From: Curvularia clavata
Taxonomy: Eukaryota
Assembly: GCA_023920165.1 (NCBI GenBank)
Contig: CP089277.1
Span: forward strand, 3,968,001-4,032,000
Reading direction: 5' to 3'
Length of the DNA: 64,000 nt
The notes under the pieces are model-generated. The model was not told where the DNA came from and made no database searches. It saw nothing but the letters and a program-made list of their open reading frames with translations. Made by a program: the position numbers and the translations under genes. Shown one piece after another: positions 15,771 to 16,836 of the stretch (its first letter is position 1; the number at the start of each line of letters is the position of its first letter).

Positions 15771-16836
15771 ATGACGAACGCACTTGGATCCGTCAACCGC
15801 AGTACGGTGTCAAACCTGTTCGTACGCAAGGGCCAGAGGTCTTACTACGCTTGTGTGTGCTGTCTGAACGCCTTCAGGGATAATGAGCCCGTTACTTTTG
15901 GCAGAGCGGGTTGCGTTATGTTGGACATCGACAATCCTGAGGTAGCTGAGGCTTGGTCTGGCTACAAGGTTGAACCGGAGTCTGGCGGTATGCCTAGGCA
16001 GGTGATGAAGTGTCTTCGCTGCTCTTACATCAACCGTGTCTGTTTTGCGGTAAGTTGCCCTGTTTTGCTCTGATTTGGTCCAATTTGGAGCTAAATGAGT
16101 GGTTAGGTGCCTCCTCCCGACAAGTTCTCCCCCGACTGGGTGAGACTTGGCCAGCTCATTGGGAAGGTTGAGGATGCCTTCCATGCCATTGACAAAGATA
16201 TCCCCGAGGGTGCCAATGAGGCTGAAGTTCGTGCTGAGCGCAGGGAAATGTACGAGGTGGCCGTTACTAGGCTTAGTATGTTCAGCAAGCCTATTGTTGA
16301 GTCACTCAAGAAGTAAGTGATCCAATTTTCCTAAATCTGGCCCAAATTGGACTAATTTGTGTAGGTTTGAGCCTCATGCTACTCATCTGTCTCTTTCCTC
16401 TGGTGCCATCGAGGAGGAAGATGATCCCCGCTCTGGTGTGAAGACTTCTGCCCTTGGCCGCTCCAAGAAGGATGAAGAGGTCAAGAGGAAGGCTCATGAG
16501 ATCGAGGTGGAAACTTTGGTCGAGGCAAGGGTCAAGAAGTCCAAGTATGGCTCTGGTGGGCGCAAGAAGGAGGTTTGTGATCCTTTTCCCCCCTATTTAC
16601 GCCAAATTGCCCCAATTTGGACTAACTTGGTTCTTTAGGTCAAGGTTGCCGAGGATGTCACTGATGAGCTTCAGAAGCGCATCAATGACATTGATGAAGA
16701 GATTTTGCAAAAAATGTCTGAGAAGGAGGGGGCCAAGGGTCAAGCCAAGAGGAAGATCACCAATGACATCAAGAACTTGGAAAAAGCCAAGGCAAGGCTT
16801 AACAAGGAGTACGAGGCCGCAGTTGCCGGTGATTAA
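15771..16836 (+). CDS. Antisense, spliced accessory gene inside the retrotransposon (296 aa; exons 15771-16049, 16107-16312, 16365-16572, 16639-16836); Cys-rich N-terminus, coiled-coil C-terminus
   Basis: Three phase-compatible introns of 57, 52 and 66 nt (GTAAGT..TAG, GTAAGT..ACTAAT..TAG, GTTTGT..ACTAAC..TAG) give one uninterrupted ORF from ATG to TAA. Confidence 0.88.

Follow-up and report, generated by a model that had tools for sequence, protein, structure and literature searches.

Additional genes on the antisense strand of LTR retrotransposons are known, although to our knowledge none of them has a known function. Genome annotation usually hides such genes because repeats are masked. 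In fungi, the described case is brtn, an additional antisense gene of the Boty-like retrotransposons (Zhao, 2011, Virology 417:248; PMC8365987, PMC7264820, PMC4227169, PMC5987419). According to the parts of these sources used here, brtn is missing from the latest B05.10 annotation (PMC8365987), Sclerotinia sclerotiorum has been added to the brtn cases (PMC7264820), and a Monilinia transcript is 63% identical to BRTN (PMC5987419). brtn was absent from the two supplements of PMC8365987 in which it was looked for; the extra ORFs of the BcGypsy families are drawn in its Figure S1, which may be relevant to the frequency of such genes. Our literature search found, beyond brtn, no additional fungal case and no retrotransposon-borne cysteine-cluster protein.

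In plants, the antisense aORF-3R genes include Grande gene23, RIRE2, Retand ORF4 and PvRetro13 ORF2, and the consulted sections of a review state that the functions of plant aORFs are unknown (PMC7264820). The antisense protein of Grande (maize) is nuclear and its gene has its own promoter; the review proposes for plant aORFs roles comparable to those of retroviral accessory proteins, nuclear import among them, and suggests that antisense transcription may serve dsRNA-mediated silencing (PMC7264820). Retrotransposons are described as the main source of Botrytis small RNAs (PMC8365987). A further parallel is HBZ of HTLV-1, an antisense, spliced regulator whose transcription comes from the 3' LTR (PMC3185765).

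A young chromovirus with an antisense gene

We analysed a 64-kb stretch of DNA, referred to below as the window, which contains an intact LTR retrotransposon with an extra gene on its opposite strand (Table 1). The element is young and whole: its LTRs are 100% identical over 209 bp, it is flanked by the target-site duplication CTGAG, and gag and pol are open. Together with this duplication, it has the TG..CA ends and the polypurine tract of an LTR element. Because pol has protease, RT, RNase H, integrase, SH3 and chromodomain, the carrier is a chromovirus (Ty3/gypsy with chromodomain); the CCHC knuckle of gag and the order PR-RT-RNase H-INT-chromodomain in pol are those of this group. A stretch of 1.9 kb separates the pol stop (17125, minus strand) from the 3' LTR. 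The extra gene (15771-16836, plus strand) lies between the pol stop at 17125 and the 3' LTR (14969-15177), which is the position of an antisense aORF; LTR and domain mapping thus confirmed the placement proposed by an earlier reading made from the sequence alone (the sequence-only reading). Judged from their sequence, the element and its antisense gene are well preserved and probably active.

Table 1. Positions of the retrotransposon, its antisense gene and the older copy in the window.
Feature	Position	Strand	Remarks
LTR retrotransposon, intact	14969-22299	minus	7,331 bp
Target-site duplication CTGAG, 3' side of element	14964..14968	-	identical 5 letters beside both LTRs
3' LTR, TG..CA	14969..15177	-	209 bp; 100% identical to 22091-22299
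TATAAA within 3' LTR; one palindromic motif copy near U3 start	15140-15168 (motif)		
Polypurine tract AAGAAGGGAGG (element sense strand)	15181..15191	-	3 nt from 3' LTR; read from sequence
Spacer 5' of antisense gene, presumed promoter and 5' UTR	15178..15770	+	about 594 bp
Motif copies in 5' spacer	15354-15370, 15569-15597, 15730-15748		
Exon 1, conserved Cys6 domain	15771..16049	+	93 codons
Alternative GT..AG intron inside exon 1	15822..15877	+	56 nt; skipped in one short RNA-library contig
Intron 1	16050..16106	+	57 nt, phase 0; motif at 16075-16090
Exon 2	16107..16312	+	also read in L001
Intron 2	16313..16364	+	52 nt, phase 2; motif at 16337-16352
Exon 3	16365..16572	+	conserved L-x-L-S-S-G-A-(I/V) start, then charged region with bipartite-NLS-like pattern
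Intron 3	16573..16638	+	66 nt, phase 0; motif at 16603-16620
Exon 4, K/E-rich helical hairpin (predicted)	16639..16836	+	65 codons and stop
Spacer, gene stop to pol stop	16837..17150	.	motif arrays 16854-16892, 17001-17039, 17104-17150
pol: protease, RT, RNase H, integrase, SH3, chromodomain	17125..20778	-	
gag, CCHC zinc knuckle	20826..22058	-	frame differs from pol
5' LTR	22091..22299	-	
Target-site duplication CTGAG, 5' side of element	22300..22304	-	
Older copy: LTR, spacer, first 50 codons of antisense gene (12252-12401)	11176..12401	-	RIP-mutated
Probable resumption of exon 1 of older copy beyond DNA transposon, weak	14266..14313	+	E 0.028

The sequence-only reading had implied that an antisense accessory gene of this sort was novel. 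Genes of this kind have been in print since brtn in 2011, and plant examples have been reviewed, so that this gene is a new example only and leaves knowledge of the kind itself unchanged. As far as brtn is described in the sources at hand, both cases concern a fungal chromovirus with an extra opposite-strand gene between pol and the 3' LTR that annotation has overlooked. However, the element described here differs from Boty in its 209-bp LTRs; because of these LTRs, and because the only named protein relative comes from Alternaria gaisen, it is not Boty itself. Plant aORF-3R genes, as outlined in the review, share the position, the orientation and the lack of a known family, with an own promoter and a nuclear protein being the features of Grande; in contrast, they belong to plant non-chromovirus lineages with long 3' regions, whereas the gene here takes up 1,066 bp with three introns. 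The portions of that review consulted mention no likeness to this protein (PMC7264820). With HBZ of HTLV-1, the gene shares its antisense location by the 3' LTR, splicing, and a helical C-terminal part with basic patches, but HBZ belongs to the bZIP proteins and comes from a vertebrate retrovirus, and the analogy is one of logic, not of homology. What sets this copy apart is that it is unusually clean, combining an intact element, identical LTRs, an open frame, conserved relatives and a trace of spliced RNA.

Two copies of the element, both within the 64-kb window, were compared. Between the older and the young copy, G>A or C>T accounts for 116/133 and 97/102 differing positions, a bias that reads as the signature of RIP (repeat-induced point mutation). 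A 271-bp repeat (11775-12045) interrupts the older copy, and a DNA transposon cuts it at 12399. Positions 12252-12401 match residues 1-50 of exon 1 at 48% identity (E 8e-11) with stop codons present, and 14224-14313 match residues 37-66 weakly (E 0.028). Past 14313, a RIP-tolerant alignment of 14267-14968 with the young gene scored 99.5, within the shuffle maximum of 105. The 5' part of the gene that the sequence-only reading had seen in the older copy was thus recovered at 12252-12401, whereas its second portion at 14266-14313 is a weak match only. The start of the gene lies at the same distance from the LTR in the young and the older copy, and the claim that the gene belongs to the element family stands on this shared start.

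Gene model, relatives and transcripts

The four exons joined give 891 nt, or 296 codons and a stop, and joining and translation reproduced all exon coordinates and the three-intron splice of the sequence-only reading. The introns start with GTAAGT, GTAAGT and GTTTGT, all end in TAG, and each contains a CTAA branch-like site; at 1,066 bp in all, including these short fungal introns, the gene is compact. Across the 64-kb window, just 11 plus-strand candidates satisfy a strict fungal-intron pattern. Because four of these 11 fall inside the antisense gene, namely the three used introns and one alternative donor, its introns exceed what chance would give. Introns that face backwards survive retrotransposition, as is known from antisense-intron indicator genes; those of this gene are copied at each retrotransposition, since they are backwards in the genomic RNA and hence unspliced there. 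The exact ORFs were absent from the protein collection in which they were looked up.

When 1.84 billion representatives were searched exhaustively with phmmer, 7 matches reached E<=0.001, and six of them were retained as relatives; the seventh, P0004, was dropped as a tandem-repeat protein in which only residues 5-34 were matched, nine times over. The six relatives and two cluster mates align across all of exon 1 at 27-47% identity, and C28, C31, G44, G47, C48, C81, R83, C84, C91 and A93 are invariant in 8 sequences. The relatives have in common the pattern C-x2-C...G-C...C-x-R-C-x6-C-x-A. In five of the six, the ORF is 92-104 residues long and ends a few codons beyond the conserved ...C-x-A-V, which coincides with the start of intron 1 in our gene; such short relatives are as expected if a prokaryote-style gene caller had read through exon 1 and then into the intron. 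Most relatives are unannotated single-exon ORFs from short contigs. The sole relative from a named organism is P0002, a 309-aa hypothetical protein of Alternaria gaisen; its matches to exon 1 (36%, E 1.7e-17), to exon 3 (E 2e-4) and to exon 4 (E 3e-5) are collinear.

The protein family is small and nameless, and appears to be new here. None of the six retained phmmer relatives bears the name BRTN. Word-indexed protein searches with exon 1 gave no match, a profile search added P0010 alone, and two look-ups in the ESM Atlas returned only sub-threshold matches or unnamed clusters. A single-protein metagenome scan gave no match, while a scan with the alignment A3 gave L001, L002 and L003; L002 and L003 were set aside as chance matches, the common part being just a 19-residue stretch with a stop. 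None of the metagenome loci of relatives reaches a pol gene, and viral contigs scanned with A3 and with the integrase-chromodomain part yielded none.

The metagenome contig L001, the one relative examined as DNA, is 46% identical in exon 1. By eye and translation, its intron 1 lies at the identical codon boundary (phase 0) and its intron 2 has the same phase (2), and its exon 3 begins with L-x-L-S-S-G-A-(I/V), as here. A polypyrimidine tract was also seen by eye at 1277-1293 of L001, at the place expected for the PPT.

These comparisons bear on whether the element recently captured a host gene that it carries as a passive passenger. P0002 of Alternaria gaisen might belong to a free-standing host gene family, as such a capture would have it. 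However, the gene starts at the matching place in the older RIP-mutated copy, L001 has the phased motif described below around its gene and a polypyrimidine tract at the PPT place, and the short contigs with unannotated single-exon ORFs that supply most relatives are what repeats would yield. We regard recent capture as very improbable.

Parts of the stretch were present in 20 sequencing runs from 15 studies; 8 of the runs have at least half of the sampled words, and some carry the element nearly unchanged. Four runs (X8, X9, X13 and X17) were mapped to the stretch, X17 alone being on record as RNA. X17 is a root metatranscriptome with cover in 5/30 bins, all in the antisense-gene region, and its gap over gag-pol carries no weight. 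A 260-nt X17 contig lies on 16637-16871 at a depth of 4.1 and comes from a copy about 3% divergent; its 25 extra upstream letters agree with 16546-16570 at 23/25 places. This loose end, read by eye, gives some support to splicing of the exon 3/exon 4 junction 16572|16639, with the join falling on the predicted GT..AG borders. The automatic joint call listed none on the mapped contigs. X17 also covers 15593-15932 (with one contig on 15593-15822); the 5' UTR is therefore at least 178 nt. In addition, an 84-nt X17 contig skips 15822-15877 (by eye; 26/29 loose letters equal 15793-15821), and a sister contig is unspliced; since this skip shifts the frame onto a stop, it may be an unproductive alternative splice inside exon 1. 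Contigs of X8, X9 and X13 pass unspliced through the introns and are probably DNA, although X13 is guessed to be RNA. Two loose contig ends of X17 read by eye, from one library at low depth, thus give some support to plus-strand transcription and splicing of the antisense gene. As regards the three junctions named for checking by the sequence-only reading, 16572/16639 was seen in the X17 contig, whereas 16049/16107 and 16312/16365 found no RNA match. The same reading had asked for stops or neutral evolution to be looked for; the 13 coding variants in runs X8 and X17 (8 synonymous, 5 non-synonymous, 0 stops) speak for the gene.

Could the frame nevertheless be open by chance and look gene-like because the splice sites could be freely chosen? 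Splicing in a model can rescue a frame, and no joint was called automatically. Against this explanation stand homologues that keep the residues, the intron positions and their phases, together with the cluster of strict introns and the exon 3/exon 4 RNA junction; the sequence comparisons bring it close to refuted, and we give it almost no chance. Because of the six cysteines invariant in relatives, the intron positions and phases of L001, the collinear P0002 and the exon 3/exon 4 RNA junction, we hold with high confidence that this is a real, selected, element-borne gene.

A six-cysteine domain and a charged, helical remainder

The predicted protein of 296 residues consists of an N-terminal six-cysteine domain, a charged middle and a C-terminal helical hairpin. 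Cysteines at 28, 30, 31, 48, 81, 84 and 91 make up CVCC-x16-C and CLRC-x6-C, and the final 120 residues include 29 K+R and 28 D+E, so that residue positions and counts agree with the cysteine pattern and the charged basic tail of the sequence-only reading. The conserved spacing is C-x2-C-x16-C-x32-C-x2-C-x6-C. Bipartite-NLS-like patterns begin at residues 202 and 268, and the charged middle with its NLS-like basic patches is probably disordered.

The canonical spacing of Zn(II)2Cys6 domains is C-x2-C-x6-C-x5-12-C-x2-C-x6-8-C. The N-terminal domain resembles the Gal4 type in that it has six cysteines in two groups of three (C28, C31, C48, C81, C84 and C91, invariant in 8 sequences), with C-x2-C-x6-C as the second group. 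In contrast, its first group reads C-x2-C-x16-C and 32 residues lie between the two groups, where the canonical values are 6 and 5-12. None of the 8 family members matched Zn_clus (PF00172) or another Pfam family above cut-off at E<=10, exon 1 alone matched 0 Pfam families at E<=1, and no exon had a Pfam match above cut-off, exon 4 having weak coiled-coil-type matches under it. With 0/8 profile matches at E<=10 and a deviating cysteine spacing, the Zn(II)2Cys6 label of the sequence-only reading is not supported. The two three-cysteine groups could still hold two metal ions, and the domain is presumably zinc-binding by virtue of its cysteines. Two other candidate identities found no support: no bZIP (HBZ-like) family was among the matches of exon 3, exon 4 or P0002, and no DUF3716-like match appeared in the Pfam comparison of family members.

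An AlphaFold2 model of exon 1 from the 8-sequence alignment was poor (pLDDT 57.6); in it, a helix is predicted after each C-x2-C. Sequence comparison of exon 1 with the PDB gave nothing better than E 0.7, and the fold of the pLDDT 57.6 model had no Foldseek match better than E 5.6 and none with Z>=2 in VIA-align. The structural check of the N terminus that the sequence-only reading had proposed produced a model of pLDDT 57.6 and no fold match. The model of P0002 is confident solely for two C-terminal helices (246-279 and 283-305, pLDDT 86-97) that form a helix-turn-helix hairpin, and this hairpin aligns with exon 4. Of the coiled coil previously described at this end, the K/E-rich helical character stands, but it is better called a helical hairpin in view of the P0002 model (pLDDT 86-97).

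A phased palindrome and the possible role of the gene

A feature that is absent from the sequence-only reading concerns the non-coding DNA: both within the gene and in its surroundings, it consists of the palindrome TGGCCCAA-W-TTGGGCCA and of TTGGNCC units 10 bp apart. All ten CCAAWTTGG sites of the window (10/10) lie inside the element. TTGGNCC occurs at 10-35 per kb in the LTRs, both spacers and introns 1 and 2, compared with 0-5 per kb in exons, 2.5 in pol and 0.56 outside the element; intron 3 has the palindrome core CCAATTTGG without an exact TTGGNCC. TTGG pairs exactly 10 bp apart number 7 in 1,082 nt of element non-coding DNA versus 0 in 51 kb elsewhere, and 17104-17150 holds four tandem TTGGCCC-type units at ~10 bp spacing. 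L001 has the same phased motif 5' of its gene and in both introns, despite a protein identity of 46%. This distribution points to a conserved cis element, which might be an array of sites for a dimeric DNA-binding protein. That protein could be the product of the gene itself, or a host factor might bind the motif instead, its core containing CCAAT. That the phased motif is the binding site of the antisense protein itself we consider doubtful. Along with the protein family, the 10-bp-phased palindrome is what is new here, and it is the most interesting lead.

We propose that this is the intact accessory gene of a young Ty3/gypsy chromovirus, of the antisense aORF kind, and that it probably encodes a nuclear regulator of its own element; we put the probability of this overall explanation at roughly 0.45. 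Its own opposite-strand transcript would begin on the 3' LTR side, within the LTR or shortly inside it, from a promoter in the 594-bp spacer or the 3' LTR, and would then be spliced. The product would bind metal through its six cysteines, enter the nucleus and bind nucleic acid at the 10-bp-phased TTGGNCC / TGGCCCAA-W-TTGGGCCA repeats of the element in U3, the spacers and the three introns. By analogy with HBZ, such binding would tune sense (gag-pol) versus antisense transcription. The step on which this proposal turns, that the protein acts on the nucleic acid of its element inside the nucleus, is plausible, with the odds a little under even. Candidate cis sites that recur in a distant relative make the accessory gene a testable model.

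The cysteine domain and the charged tail would equally suit binding of RNA or protein, and no DNA-binding family of Pfam was matched. The product might thus act on particles or cDNA instead, as a zinc-binding nucleic-acid chaperone, as an aid to packaging or to bringing the pre-integration complex into the nucleus, or as a means of countering RIP or RNA silencing; the accessory-type roles, nuclear import included, that the review proposes for plant aORFs in the sections consulted are in line with this (PMC7264820). Yet gag already has a CCHC knuckle, and the phased motif in the LTR, spacers, introns and L001 reads more easily as a DNA-level site array, and we consider a role in particles or cDNA rather unlikely.

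Every part of the antisense mRNA has its complement in the genomic RNA, so an RNA-level role may also be envisaged, in which the antisense unit acts on the 3' portion of that RNA by base pairing, for copy control by dsRNA or small RNAs, and the frame is secondary. The sources, as far as consulted, propose dsRNA silencing (PMC7264820) and name retrotransposons as the main source of Botrytis small RNAs (PMC8365987). However, conservation is at the protein level, with Cys, Gly and Arg invariant at 27-47% identity; intron phases are conserved, the 309-aa relative is collinear and the variants contain no stops. Such a role would not keep a frame of 296 codons open over three introns, and we judge it improbable.

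Returning to the nuclear regulator, a stronger form would make the antisense protein and the phased arrays a matched pair, with a new zinc-binding domain, an expanded and split relative of binuclear zinc clusters, recognising the TGGCCCAA-W-TTGGGCCA arrays as its operator at U3, at the promoter of the gene and within the introns. We rate this reading as a whole as distinctly doubtful. If true, it would mean a self-contained gag-pol/antisense switch in a Dothideomycete-type chromovirus family, and the first fungal retrotransposon-encoded sequence-specific regulator with its own operator sites. The motif might act in the genomic RNA instead of in DNA; sense-strand folding gave z-scores of -2.35 and -1.47, which are weak either way.

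Palindrome and phased motif in introns and spacers

In the young chromovirus, the palindrome TGGCCCAA-W-TTGGGCCA and 10-bp-phased TTGGNCC units filled each of the antisense gene's three introns, the two spacers and the U3 end of the LTR. The exons of the gene were without this filling. A relative of the gene on the metagenome contig L001, with a protein identity of only 46%, was likewise surrounded by the phased motif.

Positions of motif copies and neighbouring features (window coordinates, except for L001)
Feature	Position	Remark
Motif, LTR U3 ends	15140-15168, 22262-22290	
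Motif, spacer upstream of antisense gene	15354-15370, 15569-15597, 15730-15748	
Motif, introns 1, 2, 3	16075-16090, 16337-16352, 16603-16620	
Motif, spacer from gene stop to pol stop	16854-16892, 17001-17039, 17104-17150	
Motif, L001	1098-1144, 1384-1440, 1857-1913, 2090-2145	contig coordinates
271-bp repeat	11775-12045, 23584-23854	two copies, 97% identical
327-bp segment	22299-22625, 22962-23288	two copies, 95%
Pogo/Tc5 (Fot1-like) DNA transposon	12399-14266	intact
Host genes	34685-37121 (-), 61614-62927 (+)	ordinary filamentous-ascomycete genes

Exon 1 holds a second GT..AG intron (15822-15877), which, as read by eye in the root metatranscriptome X17 (an RNA library), was absent from one short contig and retained in another. 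With it removed, the reading frame would reach a stop once 18 codons have been read, and the skip may be an unproductive alternative splice.

The element in other sequencing runs

Between its LTRs (15178-22090), the young element was matched at ≥ 99% by 15 of 18 aligned contigs in X8 and by 11 of 13 in X9. Since the runs with these contigs carry differing coded organism labels, the element is almost unchanged across several labelled organisms, reflecting either close relatives or recent spread. Sample types with the element comprised soil, air, surface, root and wastewater.

Neighbouring repeats, transposon and host genes

The pogo/Tc5 transposon, bounded by perfect 68-bp inverted repeats and carrying an open frame of 562 codons (domains DDE_1 and HTH_psq), is inserted in antisense-gene exon 1 of the older retrotransposon copy. 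The transposon itself displayed no RIP-like decay, in contrast to the RIP-mutated copy around it. One copy of the 271-bp repeat, which may be a solo LTR from another family, splits the older copy, and the other adjoins the young element. The 327-bp segment adjoins the 5' LTR of the young element, with its second copy 663 bp on. Nearby host genes include an NLR-like gene (NACHT/NPHP3_N) and an HLH transcription factor.
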